A stretch of 10,491 nucleotides of DNA from a virus. Its lineage: Duplodnaviria; Heunggongvirae; Uroviricota; Caudoviricetes. The translations under genes were made by a program, and so were the position numbers. Under the pieces are notes generated by a model, which made no database searches, was not told where the DNA came from, and was given only the letters and a program-made list of their open reading frames with translations. Below, one piece after another: positions 1 to 10,491 of this stretch (position 1 is the stretch's first letter; each line of letters begins with the position of its first letter). The DNA is taken from the IMG/VR virus record IMGVR_UViG_2690316028_000010. One strand, written 5' to 3'.

Positions 1-780
1 TTATGGCCTTGTATTTCCTTTTCTTAACTTCTTTTCGCTCTTTTTTACAAGCTTAATTAACCACTCTGGCTCATCCGACAGTTCGGAGTAATAGCAGTAT
101 TCTGGTATTGCTTTCCAAAATGTTGTTATTGCATCAGCAAATTCAACAAACTGTTCTTCTGTTACATGCAGATCATCATGAGTAGGATTGATATGTCTGC
201 CGCATATACCAGTAGGATGAGGGTAATATTCTGGATGAGTTGATGATAGGAGGCGGTGAGAATTTCCATCACCATGTTTGTACACATTTACGACTAATGC
301 GCACGCTTTGAGCTTATCGCCATAATCAGTTTCATCTATCTTGAGACCGATCCACTCGAGCAGTTTCAACAGTTGATCAAAATTTAAATCCCAAACCATT
401 GGTGTAATGATCTCTTTATCACACCAATGAGACAATTCTCTGATCGTTTTTTCTCGTAACTTTTTATCGAACTGGTGATACATACCCGCAGTTACTGCCA
501 AAAGAACAGTTTCTTGCATTTCAATAAGTGACCAGACGTAGTTTACACCCTCCTCATATGCTTGCTCATAGGCTGCCATTGGGTCGTCAAAATCAGGATT
601 GAAATGCTCAGCGGTATACTCCAGAAACTGTTTCTCTCGCTCCTCCGCCTCTTGGGTCAGATCCCCAAACTGAGACAAAAGTCTCCGTCTTGCTTCCGAA
701 ACATAAAATTCGTGAGGTTCAAGAAAATAGGGCCGATCTACTTTAGCAAGCCAAAATGTCACGAAGTTATCTGATGACAT
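1..780 (-). CDS. hypothetical protein, 259 aa (AT-rich accessory gene, family not recognised)
   Basis: Complete ORF on the complement with ATG at 780-778 and TAA at 3-1. An AAGGA Shine-Dalgarno-like motif (complement of 787-791) lies 6 nt upstream. The composition looks like a real soluble protein, and the antisense ORF 562-774 looks like a shadow. No domain recognised by eye. Confidence 0.75.
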   Translation of the reverse strand: MSSDNFVTFWLAKVDRPYFLEPHEFYVSEARRRLLSQFGDLTQEAEEREKQFLEYTAEHFNPDFDDPMAAYEQAYEEGVNYVWSLIEMQETVLLAVTAGMYHQFDKKLREKTIRELSHWCDKEIITPMVWDLNFDQLLKLLEWIGLKIDETDYGDKLKACALVVNVYKHGDGNSHRLLSSTHPEYYPHPTGICGRHINPTHDDLHVTEEQFVEFADAITTFWKAIPEYCYYSELSDEPEWLIKLVKKSEKKLRKGNTRP

Positions 781-798
781 AACTTATCCTTGATAATT

Positions 799-819
799 AT
801 TGTATGGATAGATTATCCA
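799..819 (-). promoter_or_regulatory. candidate -10 element plus adjacent 6-3-6 palindrome (possible operator) upstream of the 259-aa ORF
   Basis: On the complement strand, TACAAT (complement of 799-804) is a 5/6 match to TATAAT and would give a short leader to the ATG at 780. Immediately upstream is the palindrome TGGATA-GAT-TATCCA (805-819). TTATCC recurs at 784-789. I found no convincing -35. Confidence 0.3.
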
Positions 820-924
820 GAAATTTGCGAACTGAGTCGGTCATTTTTTTTTGTGTGCGCGTGATGTAATAAAGGTTCAGGAATATACTGTCAGTTTACT
901 GAAAAACTGGCAACAGAGGCGGTT

Positions 925-1152
925 ATGAGCGAGAGTTACGAGTTCTCAGCAGGTTGTTTTTTGAAGCTATCAATATCTTCAGGGTATTTCACTATCAAAA
1001 TTCAGGGAGATCTCCCCGCTCGTGCAGCTAGTGCCATCTTGGCAGATGATGTCGAGCAGGTTTTATCTCAACTAGACAAATGTTTTCAGCTGAGTAATAG
1101 GCAACGAGAAGGGATCGTTAAGTATCTTATGTCGAAGGGGATGCAGCCTTGA
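925..1152 (+). CDS. hypothetical small protein, 75 aa
   Basis: ATG at 925 is preceded by AGAGG (915-919) with a 5-nt spacer. The TGA at 1150-1152 overlaps the ATG of the next ORF (TGATG), implying translational coupling. No family recognised. Confidence 0.6.
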   Translation: MSESYEFSAGCFLKLSISSGYFTIKIQGDLPARAASAILADDVEQVLSQLDKCFQLSNRQREGIVKYLMSKGMQP

Positions 1153-1610
1153 TGACTTGGATCACCCAAACAGATAACTGGACAGGGATCGCGGCGTGGG
1201 CGGGTTTTGCTTTGTCCGTATTTCAATTACTAAAATCCAGAACATCGCTAAGGCTTTATCTCGGATGTGATCAGCACGAGGACAGGATATACGTTTCGAA
1301 CATAAGCGCACACGATGTAACGTTGAGTGCAGCCGGTGTGGTAACAGCCAGTGGACGCCTTAGAATGTTATCCGACGAATATTCGGACGAGAACATGATC
1401 ACACCGATGCTGCCAAAAAGATTGAAAGCACGAGACGAAATGGTCTTGAACGTGCCATTCATAAATAAGGCTCATCACAACAAAGTGCATCATCGTGGCG
1501 GGGTTTATATCAAAACATCTGACGGCAAGATGTTCAGTGATGTTTGTTGGATCAAACGCCAATGGTGGTGGTTACTGTCTGTAATACTACGAGACACAAA
1601 GCGATACTAA
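1152..1610 (+). CDS. hypothetical membrane-anchored protein, 152 aa
   Basis: I prefer the ATG at 1152 to the TTG at 1149 used in the ORF track. AAGGGGA (1135-1141) lies about 10 nt upstream. There is an N-terminal hydrophobic helix (WTGIAAWAGFALSVFQLL) and a Trp-rich hydrophobic C-terminus (RQWWWLLSVIL). The antisense ORFs 1271-1462 and 1368-1562 look like shadows. Confidence 0.65.
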   Translation: MTWITQTDNWTGIAAWAGFALSVFQLLKSRTSLRLYLGCDQHEDRIYVSNISAHDVTLSAAGVVTASGRLRMLSDEYSDENMITPMLPKRLKARDEMVLNVPFINKAHHNKVHHRGGVYIKTSDGKMFSDVCWIKRQWWWLLSVILRDTKRY

Positions 1611-1690
1611 GTTGATTGATAGTCCGAGGTGATGTTCTGCCCAGCGTAGTTGCTGGGTGATACACCTTCAATGATTCTTGTTAGTGTGTA

Positions 1691-1699
1691 GGGGGGGGG
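1691..1699 (+). repeat. G9 homopolymer directly upstream of ATG 1701
   Basis: Nine consecutive G (1691-1699), then C1700, then ATG at 1701. It is the longest G/C homopolymer I saw in the window. Confidence 0.95.
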
Positions 1700-1700
1700 C

Positions 1701-1919
1701 ATGTTGGATTTTAAAGCTGAGTTTGTTGGCGGCAGCCATAGCGGCGAGGTTATATCACCGATGTCCGAGGTAGAACTTAATAAACTAGGGTATAGAGTCC
1801 ATTTACGTGGTGCCCCCTCTGGCGATGAAATGCCTGTACACGTTGTTGTACCTATTGAATGGTCAGCGGATGAAGCACACAGAGCCATAATGCAGCGCTG
1901 GGGTAAACGCAGACGGTAG
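1701..1919 (+). CDS. hypothetical small protein, 72 aa
   Basis: ATG-initiated ORF with balanced composition. The G-run immediately upstream could serve as an SD-like element. The competing antisense ORF 1607-1930 is Ser/Pro/Thr-rich and looks non-coding. No family recognised. Confidence 0.45.
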   Translation: MLDFKAEFVGGSHSGEVISPMSEVELNKLGYRVHLRGAPSGDEMPVHVVVPIEWSADEAHRAIMQRWGKRRR

Positions 1920-2301
1920 ATGTCGCGCATTTCTCTTAAACTGGCTGCTGTGTTTGGTGCTAATTATCCATGCAAAGTGGCCTAAGCTACGTGGAAGAAT
2001 GATCAGTTTCGCATTATTTGGTTCAAGGAGGGCTCCCCCACAGCCTCACTCTCTGAATGCAAAACAGCCCCACAATCCCACTGTTAAAAGTCCCAGCTTG
2101 AAAATTGCACGCTTATGGTTGCCCCTCCCTCAACTCTATAGCTCGCCCGCGCCCCCGTGTGCATGTGCGTGCCCGCGCGTCAGGGGTCGCTGAGAAACCC
2201 TAAGATTTTGCTCATCCGAGACAAGCATTACCTGCACCTGTAAAACGCGAAATTACCTCTCAAACACCACACATAAACCCACTTTGCATTGAGATCTGAC
2301 A

Positions 2302-2649
2302 ATGACCTTACTGACACCTGAAAACGTGGCAGCGGCTAGGGCTGCCCGTAGCGCGAGGATTGAACACTGGAAAGCCAACGCCAGCCAGCTTAAGCAGGAC
2401 TTTGCTGACGAAGCGCACTGGCGGCGGCTCGCCTCACGCTTCGGCGTGCGTATGCCCTCGGCGTATGTTCCCGGCTCCGAGCTGCGATTGCTGCGCCGGG
2501 CGGCCAAACGCGCGGGCATCTCTGGTGCTGATATGCGCGATGCTTTTGGTGGGGGCGTTGCGCACCTGCACGAGCTTAATCCCCATTGGCCTGCCTTCGC
2601 GCTTATCGGCCTGATTCTTGAGATCGCGGCTGAAAAAGCTGCTGCCTGA
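2302..2649 (+). CDS. hypothetical Ala/Arg-rich protein, 115 aa, upstream of the capsid gene
   Basis: ATG-initiated ORF on the same strand as, and 68 nt upstream of, the capsid gene. It is helical-looking with a hydrophobic C-terminal segment (WPAFALIGLILEIAA). The SD is weak. Other ORFs overlap it in this GC-rich stretch (2360-2614 +, 2434-2679 -), so the frame choice is not certain. Confidence 0.55.
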   Translation: MTLLTPENVAAARAARSARIEHWKANASQLKQDFADEAHWRRLASRFGVRMPSAYVPGSELRLLRRAAKRAGISGADMRDAFGGGVAHLHELNPHWPAFALIGLILEIAAEKAAA

Positions 2650-2717
2650 TTCATCCCATTCTCTTTTCCCCTTTTCCATAAATCGCGCTGGCTAACGCTG
2701 GCGCGGGAGCTATTTCT

Positions 2718-3713
2718 ATGACTGACAATGTTTATACCCCTGACCAATTCCGCCCGCACTGGGGCGGTGTAGATGCTGACAACGACATTCACATTGAAGC
2801 GTATGACCGGGACGTTCAGACCCGCCTTGAGGCAAAGAGCGTGTTTCTCGCCGAGGGGCTGAGCACATACAAGCCGCTGAAAAACAGTAATCAGTATCGT
2901 GTAGACCGCCTGAGCGGAGATCTGGAGGTGAAGGGCAGAACCGCAGGGCAATCGCTGGAGCCTACCGCCGTTAAGTCGGACAAGCTGATTATCTCTGTGG
3001 ATACGCTGAGCTATATCCGCATCCCGATTGACTATCAAGACGACTGGACAGCGCCCACCTTTCGCGCAGAGCTGAGCCGCAACATGGGGACAGCCCATGC
3101 AAAGTTCTACGACGAAGCGCACACTATCCAGCTAATCAAAGCGACTGACTTTGTACCGCCGCCTACGTTGCAACCAACGTTTAACCCGCTGACGGATAAT
3201 GTTGTCTCGCTCGACCTGACAACGGGGAGCGAAGAGGATGCGGCTAACGAACTGGTTCACGCTATTAAAGCTGCTGTTAATCGATTCCTAACTGAAAAAG
3301 ATATTCCGGTGGCGGAGCTGTGCCTTCTCATCGACCCAGCTTGGTTCAGCATCCTGATGGAACATAAGAAGTTGATGAACGTCCGTTACAGCCGGGATAG
3401 TGGCAATGATTACGCATGGCGTCGCGTTGGCTATGTCGCTGGGGTGCGAGTTATTGAGCTGAACAGTTACCCGCAGGAAGCCATTACCGCGCATGAACTG
3501 GGCGCTGATTATGATGTGACCGCAGGGGAAGCGCTGACACGGGCGACGCTGTTCCGGCCTGCGTCTGTACTTGTGACAGTCGAAGCGCAGAGCGTTATCA
3601 ATCGCCAGTGGGATGATGAACGCGAAATGACAATGGTGATGGACTCATATCGCCTGTTCAATGTTGGGCTGCGCCGCCCTGACTGCGTTATAAATTTCCG
3701 ACAAGCTGCATAA
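2718..3713 (+). CDS. major capsid protein, HK97 fold, T7 gp10-like family, 331 aa
   Basis: GGGAG (2705-2709) lies 8 nt upstream of the ATG. Its length is close to T7 gp10A (345 aa as I recall). By-eye collinear similarity to gp10A as I recall it: DKLIISVDTLSYIRIPIDYQDDW..RAELSRNMGTAHAKFYDEA vs EKVITIDGLLTADVLIYDIEDAM..RSEYTSQLGESLAMAADGA; LCLLIDPAWFSIL vs VFYCDPDSYSAIL; GVRVIELNSYP vs GFEVVEVPHL; C-terminal GLRRPDCVINF vs GGLRPEAAGAVVF. Confidence 0.88.
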   Translation: MTDNVYTPDQFRPHWGGVDADNDIHIEAYDRDVQTRLEAKSVFLAEGLSTYKPLKNSNQYRVDRLSGDLEVKGRTAGQSLEPTAVKSDKLIISVDTLSYIRIPIDYQDDWTAPTFRAELSRNMGTAHAKFYDEAHTIQLIKATDFVPPPTLQPTFNPLTDNVVSLDLTTGSEEDAANELVHAIKAAVNRFLTEKDIPVAELCLLIDPAWFSILMEHKKLMNVRYSRDSGNDYAWRRVGYVAGVRVIELNSYPQEAITAHELGADYDVTAGEALTRATLFRPASVLVTVEAQSVINRQWDDEREMTMVMDSYRLFNVGLRRPDCVINFRQAA

Positions 3714-3729
3714 CAAAAGGGGCCGAGCC

Positions 3730-4161
3730 ATGAATATTGATGCTTATGCCCCGGAGCTGTTGCGCTCTTTGTTTCGGTACGATGCGAAGACTGGCCGCCT
3801 GTTCCATGCAGTAGACCGGATCGGAGCCAACAAGCGGATTTACGCTAAAGCCGGGGAACTGGCCGACACGGTAACGGACAGCGCCGGATATAGGCGCGTA
3901 TCTGTCCGCATCAATGGCAAATCTCATGCGCTATACGCCCACCGTGTCGCCTTCATCATTGCTAATGACGGTATCCCTGCCGGGATGCAAATCGACCATA
4001 TCAACGCGGTACGCGATGACAACCGCCTTATCAATCTCCGCACGGTTACGCCACAAGAGAACCAGCACAATTACCGCAAAGCCAAGGGTTATAGCCACCA
4101 TGCCTGCTCTGGCAGATGGGAGGCTTACATTCGCGTTGGTGATCCACCGCGCGATAAATAA
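3730..4161 (+). CDS. HNH homing endonuclease (HNH_3 type) with a truncated AP2-like C-terminal stub, 143 aa
   Basis: AAGGGG (3717-3722) lies 7 nt upstream of the ATG. It has the classic motif AHRVAFIIANDGIPAGMQIDHINAVRDDNRLINLRTVTPQENQHN (His-Asn-Asn metal finger). The C-terminus GYSHHACSGRWEAYIRVG resembles the first strands of the AP2 DNA-binding domain found in HNH-AP2 phage endonucleases, but the ORF stops 8 residues later. Confidence 0.9.
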   Translation: MNIDAYAPELLRSLFRYDAKTGRLFHAVDRIGANKRIYAKAGELADTVTDSAGYRRVSVRINGKSHALYAHRVAFIIANDGIPAGMQIDHINAVRDDNRLINLRTVTPQENQHNYRKAKGYSHHACSGRWEAYIRVGDPPRDK

Positions 4162-4200
4162 GCCGCAATCCGTGAGATAAATGGACACGGTGCGGCTTTT
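4162..4200. terminator. bidirectional intrinsic terminator between convergent HNH and tape-measure genes
   Basis: The left arm GCCGCAATCCGTG (4162-4174) pairs with the right arm CACGGTGCGGC (4186-4196), with a small internal mismatch. It is followed by TTTT (4197-4200) on the plus strand and preceded by A-rich sequence, which provides the U-run for the minus-strand transcript. It sits exactly between the two stop codons (4161 and 4228). Confidence 0.7.
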
Positions 4201-4227
4201 CAGATACTGCAAAGGAATTACAGATTA

Positions 4228-6711
4228 TCAGTCGTAAGCAACCCGGCGCTTACGGGCAAGGATAGCTTCCAGTGCTCTTTCAATCTCAGGAATGGACAGC
4301 TTAAGCGCATTGGCCACATCCGGTGCTGGTGACTTGTTCTTGCCATCAATATAGATATTGTTAATGACGTTAATCCCGCCGCCTGCGCCTGCTGGTGAAT
4401 GAGAGTCCCGGCCTCTGGGTAAGGTAAGGTCGCCGCGCATATAGCGCTCTAATACGGGGGGTACTTTCGGCACATCCGGCACCATCATATCAGCCAGCCG
4501 CGAGGAGGCTTTCAGCGCCAGTGATGCAGACTGACCAATGCCAATCGCCGCCCCTTCTGCGATATTAGACCCGAAGCCCATAAATACACGGCTTGGCGAG
4601 TGAATCCCCAGCTTTTCCTTGAACCAGCCGCCGACACTGTCACCCATCTCAGTGACGGTATTCTTGAGAGACTCCCACTTGTTTTTGATACCGTTCACCA
4701 GTCCATCAATCAAGTGACCACCAAACTCAGTAAACTGGCCGGGAAGGTCGATGTTAAACCACTTCATGACCCCCGCAAACGCCTTGTAGAACAGCCCCAG
4801 CGGCGACCAGTTCAGGATTAGCTTACTGACACCAAGAACCCCGCCGTTAAAGGCTGTTTTCACTTCCTCCCACCGCTGCGAGAACCATCGGCTTATCGCG
4901 CCCCAGTTGCGGTAAATCAGGTACGCGCCCCCGGCGATGATGGTTATCGCAATGCCTATGGGGTTCATTAACAGCGCCCTGCCAAACCAGAGGAAAGCCT
5001 TTGCCACCACCATTACGCCTCTGAACAGTCCACCCGCCAGCGCTTTACCCAGCATTCCGGCTCCCTTCGCCACGGTACTGAATCCGGTAGCCAGCCAGCG
5101 CAGCTTTCCGCCGTCGCTCAGGGCGGTTTTGAGCAACAGCCAGTTAGTGCGCAGCAGTACGGCGTTTTTCCACAACCCGGCGAACGGTGATACCAGCAGA
5201 TTCAGGCCGAGTTTCAGCCCGACAGTGGCGATTTTCAGCCCCAGCAGTACGCCCACGGTTTTTGCCACACCCTGAACAATGCCGGGATGTTGCGCTATCC
5301 ATTGCCCGGTGGAATGAATCAGCGGAATCAGTTGCTGCGTCATTGACACGAACGAGGGAGACAGTTGACTGCCAAGGGTAATGGACAGTTCGCGGGTGCT
5401 GACCATCAGTGCTTTGGTCGCCTCCAGCGGCGATTTCAGTCGCTCCGTGTAGGAGGAGGCCAGCAGGTCTTTATCCGCCGCCTTAAGTGCGCCAGCCCTG
5501 ATTTCGCGGTATTTGTCCATGTTGGCGAGCATCGGACGGACAAACGCCATGACCTGCATATCGGCGAACATCTCACCCAGACCGAAATTCTTTGCCAGTT
5601 CCTGTAACGCAAGGTCGCGGGAGTTATCGTCCTTGATTTTCATTGCTTTCTTGAAGCCTGCCAGTGCTTCCGGGCTTTTGGCCTCCAGATACCTGCCCAT
5701 GACGCTTATCATGCCCTCAATGGGCGAGACGCCAGCAGATTTATAAGCCATGAGTGACCCCTGAAGGTCAATCCCGATATCGGCAAACTGTTTCTGCGTG
5801 TCGCGGGCAAAAATCTTGGTGAGGAAGTTACGGAAGTTGTTACCAGCCTCGTCAGATGACCCGGCACCAATTCGGGCAATCTGTAAACTCGCTCCGATTT
5901 CCGCCATCGCTTCTTTACCTTCGGCAATACCGCGCATCATCGGGGCAAGAGATGGCATCCATTTCACCTGGTCAGGTATTTCAAAAGACCCTTGGTCGCC
6001 TGCAAAGGCCATGATGTTCTGTACTTTGGCAAACTCTTTAGCGCTGCCATCCATCGAGTTTTTCCAGACGGCGGCAACCTTCGCCCATTCCGTCCCTGTG
6101 GTGCGTGTGGCAGTAGCGGCGCGGGCTATATTGGGCATGAAGCTGCCAATTTCGGACACACTGTCGATATTGTCACTGATAAGCGAGCCTACGGCGTCCT
6201 GTAAGTCGCTCTGGTACTGGTTGTACTTGAGCGACCATCCCCGGATTTGCTGCCCCAGACTGGCGCGGGTTTTATCGTCATATTTCGCCGTGATCGACAT
6301 ATCAATCATCTTGTCGTCGAACGTAGCCGACTGCTGAATCGCCGGGGAAACGAGGCTGTAAGCGGCTTTGGCCTGCGCCCACGTCTCAATTCCCTGTCCA
6401 TAAAGCGCCATCCGGTTAGCTCTCAGGGCATCGGTTGTGGCAGACGCTGCCGACAGGCGGGACTGCTGGCGGTTTAGTTGCTCCAGCGTTCTGCCTACCC
6501 GTTGCAGGTCATTGTTCAGGCGTGAGGCCACGCCTGAACCTACCTGACCGTAACGCTGCATGGCGCGTGACAGGCTGCTTTGTTGCTCGGTCAGGCGGCG
6601 TGACGTGTCGCCGAGAGAATCAAGCGCCCGCCGTGTGCCGCTGACGGCGGAACGGAAGCTGCTCCCGACAATACCGCCAATCATCACACCAACAGAAAAA
6701 TTATTGCTCAT
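4228..6711 (-). CDS. phage tail tape measure protein, 827 aa
   Basis: GGAG (complement of 6718-6721) lies 6 nt upstream of the ATG. The N-terminal region is coiled-coil. A central region resembles the TP901-family tape-measure core (..ASLQIARIGAGSSDEAGNNFRNFLTKI..). A block of Gly/Ala/Leu-rich hydrophobic helices follows (GVLLGLKIATVGLKLGLNLL, IGIAITIIAGGAYLIY), then the conserved GIHSPSRVF motif. All plus-strand ORFs inside it are low-complexity shadows. Confidence 0.93.
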   Translation of the reverse strand: MSNNFSVGVMIGGIVGSSFRSAVSGTRRALDSLGDTSRRLTEQQSSLSRAMQRYGQVGSGVASRLNNDLQRVGRTLEQLNRQQSRLSAASATTDALRANRMALYGQGIETWAQAKAAYSLVSPAIQQSATFDDKMIDMSITAKYDDKTRASLGQQIRGWSLKYNQYQSDLQDAVGSLISDNIDSVSEIGSFMPNIARAATATRTTGTEWAKVAAVWKNSMDGSAKEFAKVQNIMAFAGDQGSFEIPDQVKWMPSLAPMMRGIAEGKEAMAEIGASLQIARIGAGSSDEAGNNFRNFLTKIFARDTQKQFADIGIDLQGSLMAYKSAGVSPIEGMISVMGRYLEAKSPEALAGFKKAMKIKDDNSRDLALQELAKNFGLGEMFADMQVMAFVRPMLANMDKYREIRAGALKAADKDLLASSYTERLKSPLEATKALMVSTRELSITLGSQLSPSFVSMTQQLIPLIHSTGQWIAQHPGIVQGVAKTVGVLLGLKIATVGLKLGLNLLVSPFAGLWKNAVLLRTNWLLLKTALSDGGKLRWLATGFSTVAKGAGMLGKALAGGLFRGVMVVAKAFLWFGRALLMNPIGIAITIIAGGAYLIYRNWGAISRWFSQRWEEVKTAFNGGVLGVSKLILNWSPLGLFYKAFAGVMKWFNIDLPGQFTEFGGHLIDGLVNGIKNKWESLKNTVTEMGDSVGGWFKEKLGIHSPSRVFMGFGSNIAEGAAIGIGQSASLALKASSRLADMMVPDVPKVPPVLERYMRGDLTLPRGRDSHSPAGAGGGINVINNIYIDGKNKSPAPDVANALKLSIPEIERALEAILARKRRVAYD

Positions 6712-6742
6712 GGTTCACTCCGGTTGAGTGGTTCGGTGGGCG

Positions 6743-7336
6743 TCATTCAGTCAGGGACAGGCCGCTGATTCCGGTAATCCCGGCAATTTCTTCGCTGACG
6801 GCTGCCAGTTCACTTTCAAGCCCGGTGCGTTCGCTGACCAGTGCCGCCACGGTCTTACGGCGCTCTGCCAGTGAGGGAAGTTTGTCATTACCCCACGTCA
6901 CGCTCTTATCCTTCTTAAGCGCTTCGGTCAGTCGGGTGGCGACCACATCCGGGAAGAAAAAGCAGAGCTTGCGCATTACCGCCATCCCGGTATCAGCCGG
7001 GGGGACGTTTCCTCCCAGCCCCACCAGACGGAACAGACCGGAAATATCGCCGTTCTCATTTTCCAGATTGCCCCAGCGTTCGGCGTTCCCTTCACCGCCG
7101 GAACCGTTGCAAAGAGCACGCTTGAATGACTGATATTCTTCCTGCCCGAATCGCTCAATATATTCAGGAATAAAGGAACAGTAATCATTAAGTGATAACG
7201 GCATATCCTGTAATGCGGTTATTTCGCCATTAATATCACCAATGCGACGAGAGAGCTTTTCTTTCTGCTCATTCAGGGAGGTAAGGTTATTTTTAACGGC
7301 GTTCAGTGCTTCAATGAGGGAAATAACAGGTTTCAT
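6743..7336 (-). CDS. hypothetical coiled-coil protein, 197 aa (between the gpO-like gene and the tape measure gene)
   Basis: GGAG (complement of 7345-7348) lies 8 nt upstream of the ATG. The start is coupled to the upstream stop by TAAAATG. Heptad-like N- and C-terminal segments (LTSLNEQKEKLSRRIGDINGEITALQ; GLESELAAVSEEIAGI) flank a Gly-rich middle. No family recognised. Confidence 0.8.
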   Translation of the reverse strand: MKPVISLIEALNAVKNNLTSLNEQKEKLSRRIGDINGEITALQDMPLSLNDYCSFIPEYIERFGQEEYQSFKRALCNGSGGEGNAERWGNLENENGDISGLFRLVGLGGNVPPADTGMAVMRKLCFFFPDVVATRLTEALKKDKSVTWGNDKLPSLAERRKTVAALVSERTGLESELAAVSEEIAGITGISGLSLTE

Positions 7337-7337
7337 T

Positions 7338-7952
7338 TTAATAACTCCAGATAAAAGGTGTAGTGAGGGTGAGCGCTTCGGAATAGGAGACGTTGCAGGC
7401 TTCGCTTACATCCTTTATTAAAAGGTGCTGCGCTGCCCTCTGGCTGTCGGCTATGCCGTCGAGCTCTGAGAAATAAACGTGTGATTCATTGTGACCAAAA
7501 CAAACCGGGTAAGCGCTTTCCATAAACTCCACCTGCTCAAGCCCCTTTACGGCTGGCGGCTGTGCGCCGAGAAAACCAATATGGCGAAGATACCAGGCAC
7601 CAGTTCCGGCCGGGTTACGCGCTTCTCCCGGCCTGTAGAAAGCGGCAGACACTTTTTTATATAGACCTGACTGAACCATATCCAGCAACCTGTTATCAGG
7701 CTTAACCAGCGCGAAAAGTCTGCCGTTTTTACTTATCAGTCCGGTGGTTTCACCATAGGCGGGACTGTTACTGGCCGGATGCCCCAGGCACAGCGGCGCA
7801 CCATAACCCGCGCGATGATAGCCGTTATAGGCTGCTGCCATGTTGTCGATATCCTCGTCGGAAAAGCTGATTTCCTGCCCCGCCATCGCGGTATGTGTTC
7901 CCGCCCGGAATATCTCAATAGTTTTCCAGTTACCAATATTGATATCTGTCAT
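7338..7952 (-). CDS. P2 gpO / Mu gpI-like prohead protease (capsid scaffolding protein N-terminal domain) homolog, 204 aa
   Basis: By-eye collinear similarity to P2 gpO as I recall it: GQEISFSDEDIDNMAAAY vs GRVISAQDIQEMAETF; YGAPLCLGH vs YGCRINLEH; LFALVKPDNRLLDMVQSGLYKKVSAAF vs LFAKITPTDDLIAMNKAAQKVYTSMEI; PPAVKGLEQVEF vs DPASLGTEYLEF. The start is coupled to the upstream gene by TAAAATG. Confidence 0.82.
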   Translation of the reverse strand: MTDINIGNWKTIEIFRAGTHTAMAGQEISFSDEDIDNMAAAYNGYHRAGYGAPLCLGHPASNSPAYGETTGLISKNGRLFALVKPDNRLLDMVQSGLYKKVSAAFYRPGEARNPAGTGAWYLRHIGFLGAQPPAVKGLEQVEFMESAYPVCFGHNESHVYFSELDGIADSQRAAQHLLIKDVSEACNVSYSEALTLTTPFIWSY

Positions 7953-7953
7953 T

Positions 7954-8481
7954 TTATATTTGTCCCTGTTTCATATCGCGGCACTCTTTGTTTTTCTTAC
8001 GCTCGGCGGCAATAATCTGATAAATCCACTGAATAGAATTGCCATATTTCCTGGCTAATTCCCGATGAGTCATCCCTTGTTTGTAATCGGAAAATATCCT
8101 GGCATTTCTGTCGAAAGAGTTTCTGGCTGCGCCATTAGGTATATAGAAATTGTTACCTTTAAAGACCCTTCTAAGGTGTTCTGTAATTTCCGGGGAAATG
8201 ATTTCGGCCTGAGCCGAAAAGCAATGTATTGTAAGCAAAGCCTGCGCTATCACACCTGTAAGCTCATGCAGAAAAGATGTTGCTTTAGGGGCGTCTTCAC
8301 ATTCTATTGGCATGTAATTCTGGCAACCACCAAGATTATCAGATATATGCAAAACAATTTTATTTGCTGCACTACTTGCCTGAAGTTGTGAATAGCCCGC
8401 ATCAGTCAGAAAATCTTCAATCGCATCCCCCATTTCCCCCAGAGTGTCAGATGTTGCGTACAATCCCTCTCTTGTAATCAT
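7954..8481 (-). CDS. Mor/C-family transcriptional activator (Mu Mor-like), 175 aa
   Basis: I prefer the ATG at 8481 (GAGGT, complement of 8488-8492, 6 nt upstream) to the GTG at 8487 in the track. The C-terminal half matches Mu Mor as I recall it: GNNFYIPNGAARNSFDRNARIFSDYKQGMTHRELARKYGNSIQWIYQIIAAERK vs GGQVYIPRGQALDSLIRDLRIWNDFNGRNVSELTTRYGVTFNTVYKAIRRMRR (HTH region). Confidence 0.85.
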   Translation of the reverse strand: MITREGLYATSDTLGEMGDAIEDFLTDAGYSQLQASSAANKIVLHISDNLGGCQNYMPIECEDAPKATSFLHELTGVIAQALLTIHCFSAQAEIISPEITEHLRRVFKGNNFYIPNGAARNSFDRNARIFSDYKQGMTHRELARKYGNSIQWIYQIIAAERKKNKECRDMKQGQI

Positions 8482-8681
8482 AATCACACCTCGGTAATGA
8501 TAAAGATGTGCGCTAAAAAGGCTTTATAAAGCTTTATGAGGCGTCTTTCTGGTGACAAATCAGCACATACACCATTAACGCTTTAAAATGGCTTACAGGC
8601 TTTTTTAGCGCGGGTTACTAATGTGGATTAAGAATATGGTTTTGGGGCGGGGATGTTTTTTAATGTACTTTAGATATGAAG

Positions 8682-8719: not shown

Positions 8720-9010
8720 TTATTGAGGTCGTCTGTCTTTCCTCAATCCATCAAGTAGCGCCATGGCATCAGTAACCAGTATGCCAGCAGCATCCGTAAC
8801 CATCGAAACATCAGAGGATGCACATGATTTATCCATACCTAATGTTGACGCAAAATCAAGTAGCTTACGAACTGCGTCAAGTCGATAGGTGGCAGAGTCG
8901 TAAATTAACTCCTGATTAGCATCAGTCTTTAAAAACATAATATCATCAGAGGCACCTTGCGAAAATGACGGCATCGCACGGAAAGTATTTTGAGTTTCAG
9001 CCTGTTTCAT
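8720..9010 (-). CDS. hypothetical protein, 96 aa
   Basis: Strong GGAGGA (complement of 9018-9023) lies 7 nt upstream of the ATG. There is a 4-nt ATGA overlap with the stop of the upstream 245-aa gene. No family confidently recognised. Confidence 0.75.
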   Translation of the reverse strand: MKQAETQNTFRAMPSFSQGASDDIMFLKTDANQELIYDSATYRLDAVRKLLDFASTLGMDKSCASSDVSMVTDAAGILVTDAMALLDGLRKDRRPQ

Positions 9011-9744
9011 TGTGCAGTCCTCCGGCTAATAGCGAATTTATTATAAACTTCATAACTGGCAGCATTCAGTCCGGGGTTGTATTTATCAGCCAGAGCACAG
9101 GCAATCATATGTTCAATAAATTTTGTTATTGCGTTAAGTTCAGTTTCGTTTGAATAACGCAATGCCACTTTGAGTAACTCGCGGCAATATTGTTTTTTAT
9201 TCCCTTCGATTTGGCCTGATTTTTTTATTCCTGCCTTTTTATCTGATTCATCCTCAACAGGCAAAGATGGGATATCCTCTTTATTGGTTAGCGTTCTTTC
9301 GCAAATAATATCTTCACCAGATTGAATTACGCGCTGCAACTCTCTGGCGCTCATACGAAGAATATCATCAAGCGTGTGGTCGTTATATGCCCCACCACTG
9401 GCAAGGAGATCCAGTGTCACTTCATCCAGCCGGGCAAGCAGGTTTAACTTCGTTTTGCCGATACTTGTTTTGGCAATTGCGGCTCGGGGGGTATTGGTTA
9501 CGCCAAATATCAGAGCAACCCGCATAGCATTATGGGCTTCACGTTTATTAATTCCCCCCACTGAAAGCGCCTTTGCAAATTCCTCATTTGTTTTTGTTGC
9601 TTCCTTAAGTGCCAGCATCTCTTTACCACGATGCACTAAAGTTTCAGTCGGGGTTGGCAAAAGGAGTACAGCATCTAAAATTTTTTCCCGAAGTACATCA
9701 ACTTGGCTTGCGATGCATGAACGGTTAGACTTGTTGATACCCAT
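9007..9744 (-). CDS. hypothetical protein, 245 aa, possible HTH-type DNA-binding or regulatory protein
   Basis: I prefer the ATG at 9744 (GAGGA, complement of 9753-9757, 8 nt upstream) to the track start at 9765. The segment FAKALSVGGINKREAHNAMRVALIF..IGKTKLNLLARL resembles HTH-like segments of phage/plasmid DNA-binding proteins, but this is only a pattern impression. It is the first gene of the leftward operon at the divergent control region. Confidence 0.8.
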   Translation of the reverse strand: MGINKSNRSCIASQVDVLREKILDAVLLLPTPTETLVHRGKEMLALKEATKTNEEFAKALSVGGINKREAHNAMRVALIFGVTNTPRAAIAKTSIGKTKLNLLARLDEVTLDLLASGGAYNDHTLDDILRMSARELQRVIQSGEDIICERTLTNKEDIPSLPVEDESDKKAGIKKSGQIEGNKKQYCRELLKVALRYSNETELNAITKFIEHMIACALADKYNPGLNAASYEVYNKFAISRRTAQ

Positions 9745-9774
9745 GATTGTTATCCTCAATAACAATGGTGGTCA

Positions 9775-9859: not shown

Positions 9860-9877
9860 TCTAAACAATGGTACGTA
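9841..9877. promoter_or_regulatory. perfect 12-bp inverted repeat (operator candidate) in the divergent control region
   Basis: TACGTACCATTG (9841-9852) and CAATGGTACGTA (9866-9877) are exact reverse complements separated by 13 nt. The right arm abuts the RHH start codon and the left arm lies in the leftward promoter spacer. A third copy of the half-site, AACAATGGT, occurs at 9761-9769 (compare 9864-9872). Confidence 0.6.
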
Positions 9878-9879
9878 TC

Positions 9880-10071
9880 ATGTCAAGAGTAAAAGATAAC
9901 ACGCCTAAAAATTCCGCAGGGCGTTCCCCGACCTTCCAAATACGTATTACACCTGAACTTAGGGAACAGCTTGATAAAGAAGCTCTTAAAGATGGTGTAA
10001 GTTTGGCCAATTGGCTCAAAGGCATTGCACGAGATGAACTACGCAGGAGAGGTATTTCTCCAAAAGGGTAG
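9880..10071 (+). CDS. ribbon-helix-helix (Arc/CopG-like) DNA-binding protein, 63 aa
   Basis: FQIRITPELREQLDKEALKDGVSLANWLKGIARDEL has the canonical beta-strand/helix/helix RHH pattern. The start could be ATG 9880 or in-frame ATG 9868, and neither has a clear SD. It is divergent from the leftward operon, the typical position of a repressor. Confidence 0.82.
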   Translation: MSRVKDNTPKNSAGRSPTFQIRITPELREQLDKEALKDGVSLANWLKGIARDELRRRGISPKG

Positions 10072-10110: not shown

Positions 10111-10476
10111 ATGGCTAAGAGAGCGGATGCACTCATTAAAGCGGACAGCGCTGTCCGCCTCCAATCAGCAAAAAAACAAGATGGTTCCTCCAAAACGCTC
10201 AACGTTGAGCGTTACGTTATTCCGACAAAAGCGCAGGCGCTTGCGCTTTTGAAAGGGATCAACACGGCTTTCAAACCGGACAACGTTGACCGCTTTAAGG
10301 AATCACTGTCGGCTGAGCAAAAACGGCAAGCGCTTGCCGTTTTAGATTCGCGGGGCGGTAAACGTTTACCGTTCTGTGTCAATTATGTTCAAAAGCGAAA
10401 GCGCTTTCGCATTTTCTCACCTAAAGCGGCAAACCTCCTCTGTCTTAGCTGGAAAAACGACATCGCTGTCGTTTTT
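10087..10476. repeat. array of nine dyad-symmetric (palindromic) elements with A-run/T-run flanks
   Basis: P1 10087-10110 (24 bp, perfect). P2 10141-10158 (18 bp, perfect). P3 10194-10213 (20 bp, perfect). P4 10227-10250 (11/12 pairs). P5 10273-10296 (10/12 pairs). P6 10320-10343 (24 bp, perfect). P7 10356-10371 (16 bp, perfect). P8 10395-10410 (16 bp, perfect, plus flanks). P9 10453-10476 (10-bp arms, 4-nt centre). All read directly from the sequence. Confidence 0.9.
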
Positions 10477-10491
10477 AATCCGAGGTTCTAA
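10111..10491 (+). CDS. questionable ORF, 126 aa, overlapping the palindrome array
   Basis: ATG-to-TAA ORF with no SD; the 12 nt upstream are the right arm of palindrome P1. A second plus-strand frame (10025-10252) is open over the same DNA, consistent with stop-poor composition rather than coding. Eight of the nine palindromes lie inside it, in inconsistent codon phase. Confidence 0.3.
   Translation: MAKRADALIKADSAVRLQSAKKQDGSSKTLNVERYVIPTKAQALALLKGINTAFKPDNVDRFKESLSAEQKRQALAVLDSRGGKRLPFCVNYVQKRKRFRIFSPKAANLLCLSWKNDIAVVFNPRF

Follow-up and report, generated by a model that had tools for sequence, protein, structure and literature searches.

A transposable element with phage protease and tape measure genes inserted in a capsid-bearing island of Escherichia coli

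Background

Why should genes for a major capsid protein, a prohead protease and a tape measure protein lie close together, on opposite strands, with no portal, terminase, tube, sheath or chaperone gene between them? The question is raised by positions 2302-8481 of an IMG/VR virus record (IMGVR_UViG_2690316028_000010, Caudoviricetes), whose 10,491 nucleotides are here called the window. An earlier note, made from the letters of this DNA, had taken the interval as one locus with two convergent operons. It ascribed the parts to different phage lineages and offered two readings, a decayed or rearranged prophage or a satellite-like element that combines capsid, protease and tape measure genes. The unusual gene content is confirmed. 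The named open reading frames (ORFs) exist at the coordinates and on the strands reported, all of them are intact except an HNH endonuclease gene, and none of the five missing gene types was found between them. The single locus is replaced by two independent mobile elements. The interval is almost certainly the junction of an island that carries the capsid gene and an unrelated transposable element that carries the protease and tape measure genes.

Two mobile elements meet at position 4140

In a BLAST comparison with 5,426 complete E. coli genomes, the window splits into three segments. Segments 1-2231 and 2229-4141 (to 4139 in the island) match positions 15001-17231 and 23121-25033 of an island in LR536431 (locus L003) with 100% identity. 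The LR536431 island has an extra 5,889 bp (17232-23120) between them. Because the window matches LR536431 at 100% save for this deletion and an insertion at 4140, it is made of two separate elements. Positions 1-4139 are a degraded copy of a ~13-kb E. coli island integrated at a tRNA-Gly gene. From 4140 to past the end of the window runs a second element, transposable but non-autonomous, ~7.8 kb long and of BcepMu-like (Bcepmuvirus) descent. The two convergent operons are there because the transposon landed in a gene of another element. The window is 100% identical to contig LLYK01000102.1 (L013) of E. coli assembly GCA_001484375.1, which stops 19 bp past the window, and all contigs that carry the junction break within the inserted element.

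The interrupted gene encodes the HNH endonuclease. The protein is identical to the intact 175-amino acid (aa) protein of LR536431 through ...EAYIRVG (codon ~137), and the two diverge exactly at 4140. The HNH gene had been recognised before, and its truncation by the insertion had gone unnoticed. The features at the junction are listed below; ORFs here and in the later lists were assigned by Pfam and PHROG scans and by RefSeq names.

3730-4139 (+): HNH endonuclease, truncated (PF13392 HNH_3, E 7.6e-14); the ORF reads on into the element to 4161.
4134-4139: predicted left copy of the target duplication, CGTTGG, deduced from five other 6-bp duplications and the intact target in L003.
4140-4227: element terminus, which starts with TG and contains the repeats GCGATAAAT (4151-4159) and GAGATAAAT (4174-4182), presumed transposase-binding sites.

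Ends and insertion sites of the element

All copies of the element begin at the equivalent of base 4140. So does IMG/VR contig L009, whose 7,799 bp begin and stop precisely at the element termini. Complete copies are 6.9-7.9 kb long, for example positions 20001-27809 of the AW1.7 locus (L001) and 1-7799 of L009. They open with TGATCCACC, or in one variant with TGATTACCC, and close with TCTAATCA. The element moves by transposition. Perfect 6-bp duplications flank the insertions in ynbC (AGTGAA), in the dacD-sbmC spacer (ACTCAT), in a phosphotransferase system (PTS) gene (GCCGAA), in an IncF conjugative plasmid of Citrobacter (ATTGCA) and in an IncFIB plasmid of Enterobacter (CCAGAG). The island HNH gene of this window is the sixth site.

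No transposase or MuB-type ATPase was found in ORF lists or hidden Markov model (HMM) searches of the complete copies L001 and L009. HMMs made from the transposases of the presumed helper phage (described below) and of Salmonella elements match only full phages and transposase-bearing mini-elements. Since no transposase is encoded, the element would have to rely on a helper, and it is very probably a helper-dependent transposable element. It shares with autonomous Mu-like phages the TG...CA termini, the repeated sites and the short target duplication. It lacks their DDE transposase and MuB/ExeA-type ATPase, and of their complete head, packaging, tail and lysis genes it has only a protease domain, a tape measure and a terminase N-domain. 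Having both ends of its relative, no transposase and multiple sites with target duplications, it corresponds to a non-autonomous element of the mini-Mu type.

Of the 33 E. coli genomes with the element, 23 (sequence type 131 (ST131)/O25:H4 and related clinical isolates) have a near-identical variant, 87.4% identical to the query. The copy in ZH063 lies between the tRNA-Ser gene serW and infA (L004 20001-20229). The copy retains the element end, and its tape measure gene keeps the first ~55 and the last ~49 nucleotides, and ~2.4 kb between them are lost (window equivalents 4277-6655). There is an IS5 near the other end of the ZH063 element, and this lineage looks vertically inherited and partly decayed.

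Some copies have features of their own. A 6,924-bp copy resides on the E. hormaechei plasmid pFJMB80002_2 (L026; NZ_AP025769, 119 kb, IncFIB). Other genes of this plasmid are for a RecA with an intein, a 5'-3' exonuclease and a NUMOD4 HNH endonuclease, and it looks like a phage-plasmid. If it is one, the element sits there in another phage-like replicon. NZ_CP073624 and NZ_CP072539 (both AW1.7) and NZ_AP046542 (SK0832) match the protease gene and its neighbour, the p197 gene described below, in two places and may hold two copies. IMG/VR copy L008 has two 114-aa ORFs similar to Gp27, at 12206-12550 and 13531-13875, 1.3 kb apart near one of its ends, and may be a tandem or nested arrangement. 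Just past the equivalent of the window end, the AW1.7 copy (L001 26340-26560) has perfect GC-rich palindromes, e.g., CCGCTCAGCGCTGAGCGG, CCCAGCGCTGGG and GCGCCAGCGCTGGCGC, within a ~1.1-kb stretch without annotated genes. A repeated sequence is suggested here, because the source contig and several metagenome contigs break at this place.

Relation to Bcepmuvirus prophages

The presumed helper is a Bcepmuvirus prophage of the PhiKM type, found at full length in JJ1886, where it is bounded by TG...CA and flanked by the 6-bp duplication GAAGAA. Each prophage end can be aligned with the corresponding end of the element (TGAT, G.GATAAAT at 12-20 and GTG.GATA at 33-40 are shared). The Mor-family activator, protease domain and tape measure of the element all belong to one lineage, that of the BcepMu-like transposable myophages with Mu-type heads and P2-type tails. 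Their previous division between a P2-like and a Mu-like lineage is therefore superseded. Identity to the helper proteins is 71% for the tape measure, 46% for the protease, 45% for the N-domain of the small terminase, 34% for the DUF3102-like protein and 33% for Mor. Because most of the proteins are only 33-46% identical to those of the helper, the element appears to have been separated from it for a long time.

We infer that the transposase of such a helper would mobilise the element in trans. Of the 5,426 complete E. coli genomes, 639 have the helper transposase gene. A full prophage, inserted in ssuB, and the element coexist in ZH063. JJ1886 has the helper prophage and no mini-element, and its site is empty where ZH063 has the element. 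In the JJ1886 prophage, from an ST131 strain, an IS66-family insertion sequence, ISEc23, lies just 5' of the holin gene and the late operon (L011 23863-26279), and this prophage copy may be defective for late gene expression.

Genes of the element and their conservation

A leftward operon runs from a divergent promoter region at ~9800 and encodes, in order, a DUF3102-like protein, a 96-aa protein, Mor, a 204-aa protease, p197 and the tape measure. The element genes within the window are the following.

4228-6711 (-): tape measure protein, 827 aa (PF10145, phrog_28).
6743-7336 (-): p197, a coiled-coil protein of 197 aa, the companion of the short protease in miniature Mu-like elements.
7338-7952 (-): short prohead protease, 204 aa (phrog_976, head maturation protease, N-terminal part only).
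7954-8487 (-), alternative start 8481: Mor-family activator, 175-177 aa (PF08765, E 1.7e-25).
8658-8672 (-): late-promoter-like motif TAAAGTACATTAAAA, 171 bp 5' of Mor.
8720-9010 (-): 96-aa protein of unknown function, conserved in all copies, no family match.
9007-9765 (-): DUF3102-like protein, 245-252 aa (phrog_1748; annotated as DUF3102 in E. hormaechei).
9868-10071 (+): small divergent protein, 63-67 aa (RefSeq: HicB-family antitoxin or YlcI/YnfO family).
10111-10491 (+): 126-aa ORF in a variable region; the element runs ~1.4 kb past the window.

The short protease aligns with residues 4-134 of the 371-aa protease/scaffold protein of the helper. His58, Ser102 and His124 are invariant in 56 homologs, and the protein has the assemblin fold (of the herpesvirus/T4 gp21 type) with the conserved His and Ser. 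Its C-terminal two-helix tail bears the motif H...P.(L/M)SY.EA, which is also found at the end of the long phage forms. Because this C-terminal motif is common to both forms and the centre is absent, the short protease is the phage protein minus a central scaffold segment of ~170 residues.

p197, which is encoded next to it, has no Pfam, PHROG or defence-system match. It shows no similarity to the helper scaffold and has no counterpart in the phage. Structure prediction, which the earlier note had proposed, gave a helical coiled-coil model (AlphaFold2; predicted local distance difference test (pLDDT) 76) with long N- and C-terminal helices and generic coiled-coil matches, and no specific fold. 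A profile search of 1.84 billion cluster representatives found 142 relatives of p197, nearly all of ~175-240 aa. One 4,900-aa protein (P0159) has 21 separate stretches that match residues 16-71, the N-terminal helix, and is probably an artefact of a repetitive coiled coil.

The tape measure matches the 983-aa tape measure of JJ1886 and that of PhiKM over 699 aa. It is 156 residues shorter than that of JJ1886, and its C-terminal ~90 aa are only 26% identical to the helper's. Helper tape measures span 821-983 aa. The ORF is complete (825-827 aa) in six copies. The phage counterpart of the DUF3102-like protein is encoded in the early operon of the JJ1886 prophage, just 5' of the transposase gene. 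The small divergent protein is probably the regulator of the element. Past the window there are a 114-aa Gp27-like gene and then the second TG...CA end. The similarity of the 114-aa protein to the helper's DUF3486 small terminase is confined to 55 aa at the N-terminus of the latter.

Purifying selection on the element genes is strong. Ratios of nonsynonymous to synonymous substitution rates (dN/dS) were computed across element copies whose dS reaches as much as 0.78 (2 in the case of Mor). They are 0.02-0.11 for the tape measure, 0.13-0.26 for p197 and 0.15-0.22 for Mor. For the protease they are 0.07-0.14 among diverged copies and 0.20-0.36 among near-identical ones, where dS is at most 0.05. 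Because dN/dS stays within 0.02-0.36 and every ORF is intact, decay is ruled out as a general explanation.

A putative late promoter

The motif TAAAGNANATTAAAA occurs exactly once in each of 14 loci examined that bear mini-elements. It also occurs once in each of seven full enterobacterial Bcepmuviruses (KP12, PhiKM, JJ1886 and four of Photorhabdus), ~60 bp 5' of the protease/scaffold gene. The chance expectation is 0.01 per window. The motif is probably part of the helper's late promoter for head genes, which would answer to an activator. If so, the morphogenetic operon of the element would be tied to the late programme of the helper. A sigma-70-like promoter for the leftward operon is found at 9886-9858. 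The counts from a promoter and terminator scan were not above those of shuffled sequence. No Rfam family was found in the window or the complete element, and no tRNA within the inserted element.

A satellite life style and its alternatives

What does the element do with these genes? A satellite keeps few virion genes and uses the particles of its helper, and the virion-related content here is a protease domain, a tape measure and a terminase N-domain. We consider it rather probable that the element is a helper-dependent transposable satellite, inserted in this case in an island. That it is a true satellite which remodels the virion is a finer call, and we put it slightly below an even chance. 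Four proteins are candidates for redirecting or interfering functions: the short protease and p197, the tape measure, and the protein with the Gp27 N-domain.

The life cycle might be as follows. A resident or infecting Bcepmuvirus would provide the DDE transposase and its ATPase partner in trans, and the element would replicate and move. A late activator of the Mor family, from the helper or from the element, would fire the helper-type late promoter 5' of the operon for Mor, protease, p197 and tape measure. The short protease, which has the catalytic domain and the C-terminal docking tail and no scaffold core, would enter helper procapsids with p197. The two proteins would then alter or sabotage head assembly, plausibly giving small heads that fit a 7.8-kb genome or else interfering with the helper. 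The 827-aa tape measure would be built into helper tails, as in the PLE (phage-inducible chromosomal island-like element) satellites. The protein with the small terminase N-domain might steer or block the recognition of the packaging site.

Several points weigh against this proposal. Mobilisation in trans, packaging, small capsids and chimeric tails are here predictions from sequence. Small capsids are not strictly required, because laboratory mini-Mu of this size is packaged by the headful together with ~30 kb of host DNA. The idea of p197 as an alternative scaffold is a guess, because no specific fold match was obtained. The motif stands at different distances, 171 bp from Mor in the element and ~60 bp from the protease gene in the helpers. 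The co-occurrence of helper and element is based on two strains, ZH063 with both and JJ1886 with the helper only. Few E. coli genomes have the element (33 of 5,426 complete ones), and the variant of the 23 genomes has lost most of the tape measure gene, as shown in ZH063, so that some copies are decaying. The right end of the window's copy and the second target duplication fall outside both the window and the source contig. L009 comes from a metagenome of unknown type, and its termini-bounded contig is suggestive and no proof of encapsidation.

The strongest alternative is a mobile anti-phage defence cassette. Its protease domain, p197, tape measure and small terminase N-domain would protect the host by poisoning the head, tail or packaging steps in the assembly of Mu-like or P2-tailed phages, and it would be moved now and then by a helper transposase and not be packaged. 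Being diverged versions of helper assembly parts, the proteins of the element might work as dominant-negative subunits. Purifying selection would be in keeping with a benefit to the host, and the near-identical copies in the 23 clinical-isolate genomes suggest stable vertical inheritance. Interference with tail assembly is a known form of defence, as reported for Tai systems (PMC11364771) and for the Rta protein of PLE11 (PMC12987554). However, in a PADLOC defence scan of the window the only match was a homing-endonuclease model on the HNH gene, which is unrelated to the element. A selfish satellite would better account for the features that were kept, namely the two transposon ends, the late promoter of helper type and the packaging-related gene. 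Interference and a satellite life style are also compatible, as SaPIs (Staphylococcus aureus pathogenicity islands), P4 and PLE do both. We regard a pure defence cassette as unlikely, though it agrees with much of the evidence.

The element might also be an internally deleted, defective Bcepmuvirus prophage whose ends still work, that is, a passive transposon with relic morphogenetic genes. All recognisable genes of the element do have counterparts in full phages, and the loss of the tape measure gene in the variant of ZH063, an ST131-type clinical isolate, is what such a relic would show. A recent deletion is contradicted by the divergence of most genes from the helper's, and p197 has no phage counterpart from which it could be left over. 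The low dN/dS at dS up to 0.78, with every ORF intact, also argues against a relic. The same reduced layout recurs in Comamonadaceae, and mini-elements that do have a transposase, in Salmonella, Pseudomonas, Dechloromonas and others, contain the module of Mor, short protease and p197 as well. We therefore consider this explanation improbable.

The readings of 2302-8481 as one locus fare worse. The capsid/HNH side occurs alone in LR536431 and E2348/69 and the tape measure side alone at five sites, and single-locus readings were rejected. A single decayed or rearranged prophage would agree with the 5.9-kb deletion and the broken HNH gene of the island copy. Yet the two halves occur apart at many loci, the boundary at 4140 is a transposon end, and the flanks consist of chromosomal genes and a tRNA gene without phage modules. 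The conventional head and tail module that might have lain there was not found, and we consider the single prophage very improbable. Least credible of all is one composite satellite combining capsid, protease/scaffold and tape measure homologs: 19 contigs from several samples share the junction, which shows that the combination persists in a lineage, but it came from an insertion that inactivated an island gene, it occurs in none of the 5,426 complete E. coli genomes, and it would pair an Autographiviridae (podophage) capsid with the protease and tape measure of a Bcepmuvirus (a contractile-tail myophage), which are incompatible architectures. What survives of the satellite idea is that each half, taken separately, is satellite-like.

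The capsid island

The other half of the window, the island, is satellite-like in itself when intact. The present copy has decayed through the 5.9-kb deletion and the disruption of the HNH gene. Besides the HNH gene, it has the following features.

1-2231: left arm of the island, the segment identical to L003, adjoining tRNA-Gly.
2229-2231: deletion junction with a 3-bp microhomology (TAC), where 5,889 bp of the island are lost.
2302-2649 (+): 115-aa protein (phrog_21723, E 1.3e-52), function unknown, always directly 5' of the capsid gene.
2718-3713 (+): major capsid protein, 331 aa (phrog_267, E 2.8e-67).

The capsid protein has full-length homology to the capsids of the phiKMV/T7 group of Autographiviridae. 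It is 56-58% identical at the amino acid level, with 98% coverage, to the capsids of the phiKMV-like phages Lidtsur, J8-65 and their relatives, and 750 phage records match it with at least 80% coverage. Its matches to PDB capsids have E values of 1e-54 to 1e-78, and those to 23sf, 8eld and 8vb0 lie at 1e-60 to 1e-78. The former label of T7 gp10-like is right at the family level, although T7 gp10 itself is absent among PDB matches with E of at most 1. Against the E2348/69 copy the capsid gene has a dN/dS of 0.11, which indicates purifying selection. The 115-aa ORF is in the same place in the LR536431 island, and in E2348/69 this place is taken by an ORF of 137 aa, a possible homolog.

The proteins encoded by intact islands are a tyrosine integrase and a serine recombinase, a DEAD-box helicase, a weakly scaffold-like protein, the 115-aa protein, the capsid and two endonucleases, HNH and endonuclease VII. 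In the intact relatives, genes for portal, protease, connectors, small terminase, AlpA and primase were not detected. The 5,889 bp lost here encode the serine recombinase, the helicase and seven small ORFs. One of these is a 228-aa protein that we leave as weakly scaffold-like, since its PHROG scaffold match is weak (E 5e-5); it has no tblastn match in 50,697 phage records. Metagenome contig L014 has an undeleted island with the same insertion in the HNH gene. Because it has the insertion without the deletion, the element entered an intact island first, and the deletion came later.

The island adjoins tRNA-Leu in E2348/69 and tRNA-Gly in LR536431. In the source contig L013 a tRNA-Gly(CCC) gene lies ~430 bp upstream of the left arm. 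A search for direct repeats gave nothing convincing as attL and attR. Window positions 1-4200 match 178 of the 5,426 complete E. coli genomes, most of them through the capsid/HNH module. The left arm has ORFs of 259 aa (-, 1-780; phrog_19541), 75 aa, 153 aa and 72 aa, of which the 259-aa and 153-aa proteins have no known function, and its GC content is 39-47% vs. 53-56% in the capsid module. The content of the left arm (window 1-2000) varies among island copies and may be a slot for cargo or defence genes.

A wider class of miniature Mu-like elements

Related loci were surveyed with one genome per species, and the best 80 loci were annotated with home-made HMMs. In 51 of the 80 loci, which are of the phage type, the protease (median 374 aa) is encoded between MuF/portal and capsid, and none has a p197 partner. 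Among the 29 loci not of the phage type, 10 have a p197 partner and ~14 are miniature elements. In the miniature elements Mor is immediately followed by a protease, mostly a short one (~195-245 aa, up to 311), and portal and capsid are absent. They are found in Pseudomonas, Dechloromonas, Rhodocyclaceae, Oceanospirillaceae and others. Two types of Salmonella element have repressor, ner, MuA, MuB, GemA, Mor, Gam, the short protease and a p197 homolog followed by the element end, and one of the two types occupies two different sites. The 201-aa partner protein of the Salmonella mini-Mu L019 is 39% identical to p197. The metagenomic mini-Mu L021 adds a gp44-like hub, a tape measure and Gp27, and a Comamonadaceae element is organised like the element of the window, likewise without a transposase. 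The module of Mor, short protease and p197 is old, conserved and specific to reduced elements.

Three other Mu-like loci, L090 (a metagenome-assembled genome of Conchiformibius), L065 and L092, have Mor followed by a long protease and then the capsid, with no terminase, portal or MuF between Mor and protease. L090 has sheath, tube and tape measure genes as well. In their degree of reduction the three loci may stand between full phages and miniature elements.

It is possible, and we propose it tentatively, that mini-Mu elements with Mor, short protease and p197 are a widespread and unrecognised class of transposable satellites in Proteobacteria. They would replicate and integrate by transposition, relying on helper enzymes in part or entirely, and be triggered by the late programme of the helper. 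The scaffold-less protease and p197 would serve to make small heads and, in some lineages, a tape measure (and hub) of their own to make chimeric tails. Within such a class some elements would keep MuA/MuB and others, like the one in the window, would be fully without transposase.

Implications

To our knowledge, the established satellite families (P4-like, PICI (phage-inducible chromosomal islands), capsid-forming PICI (cf-PICI), PLE and others) all bring a recombinase of their own for integration and replicate episomally. If the satellite reading is true, a satellite that lives as a transposon and borrows its transposase would be a different route to molecular piracy. Mu-like phages are very common prophages, and these elements would be their first known parasites. 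In open-access papers and preprints on Mu-like or transposable satellites, natural mini-Mu, BcepMu in ST131 and Autographiviridae satellites, no description was found. Such elements insert nearly at random and, if packaged by the headful, would take along adjoining host DNA; they could thus be of importance for gene disruption and transduction, and the copies on IncF plasmids agree with this. The pair of protease and p197 is a compact candidate for a new mechanism of capsid redirection or assembly interference. The presence of a single podophage capsid gene inside an integrative island merits follow-up on its own. For annotation, orphan genes for tape measure, Mor or capsid should not be taken as prophage debris before element ends are sought.

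Comparison with known systems

The capsid island is most readily compared with cf-PICIs. Like them, it lies in the chromosome at a tRNA gene and has an integrase, an HNH endonuclease and a capsid gene of its own. Unlike them, it has no detected portal, protease, head-tail connector, small terminase, AlpA or primase; it has a serine recombinase and a DEAD-box helicase instead, and its capsid is of the phiKMV-like podophage type. Because portal, protease, connectors, AlpA and primase were not detected, the island stands outside every defined satellite family. Of the features of PICIs and cf-PICIs, the island has only the integrase and the capsid, and the mini-element has none.

In its end sequences, 6-bp duplication and late-promoter motif the element agrees with Bcepmuvirus (the PhiKM/JJ1886 prophage of E. 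coli and KP12_2 of Klebsiella), and it has homologs of the phage's Mor, DUF3102, protease domain, tape measure and Gp27 small terminase. It differs in lacking the transposase, ATPase, lysis genes, large terminase, portal, MuF and capsid, and also sheath, tube, baseplate and fibres. Its protease has no scaffold segment, and the phage has no p197.

With P4 and SaPIs the element shares several traits that are established in those systems. The late activators of helper and satellite belong to a common family (P2 Ogr and P4 delta, which cross-activate, vs. helper Mor and element Mor). A satellite protein bears the capsid-docking C-terminus of the scaffold, as CpmB does that of the 80alpha scaffold, and a small terminase-like protein is encoded as in SaPIs. 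The element differs in that it integrates by transposition and not by site-specific recombination, and its capsid redirection is conjectural. Among the Pfam and PHROG matches of the window ORFs there is no homology to Sid, Psu, delta, CpmA/B or integrase/primase modules, nor to the alpA and alpha primase of P4-like satellites.

A satellite-borne tape measure, thought new in the earlier note, is already known from PLE11 and EPIPs (PMC12987554, PMC12822802) and from some cf-PICIs. PLE11, from Vibrio cholerae, has its own tape measure, tail chaperone and baseplate hub, its Rta blocks the helper tape measure, and experiments show that its tape measure yields chimeric tails shortened by 10 nm (PMC12987554). 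The element also has a tape measure that differs in length from the helper's, and the related mini-Mu L021 has a hub homolog together with a tape measure. PLE, by contrast, has its own recombinase, circular replication and a lytic myophage host. The element has no chaperone or hub ORF.

Laboratory mini-Mu, a derivative of Mu deprived of the A/B genes and complemented by helper Mu, likewise has two ends with repeated transposase-binding sites, no transposase and short target duplications. Its transposition and its packaging from Mu ends are expected to be helper-dependent, as established for Mu. The element of the window differs in being natural, conserved and diverged from its helper, in having BcepMu-type ends and a 6-bp vs. 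a 5-bp duplication, and in having its own Mor and selected morphogenetic genes under selection. The closest functional analogue of the element is thus laboratory mini-Mu, and its closest natural analogues are PLE, P4 and SaPI.

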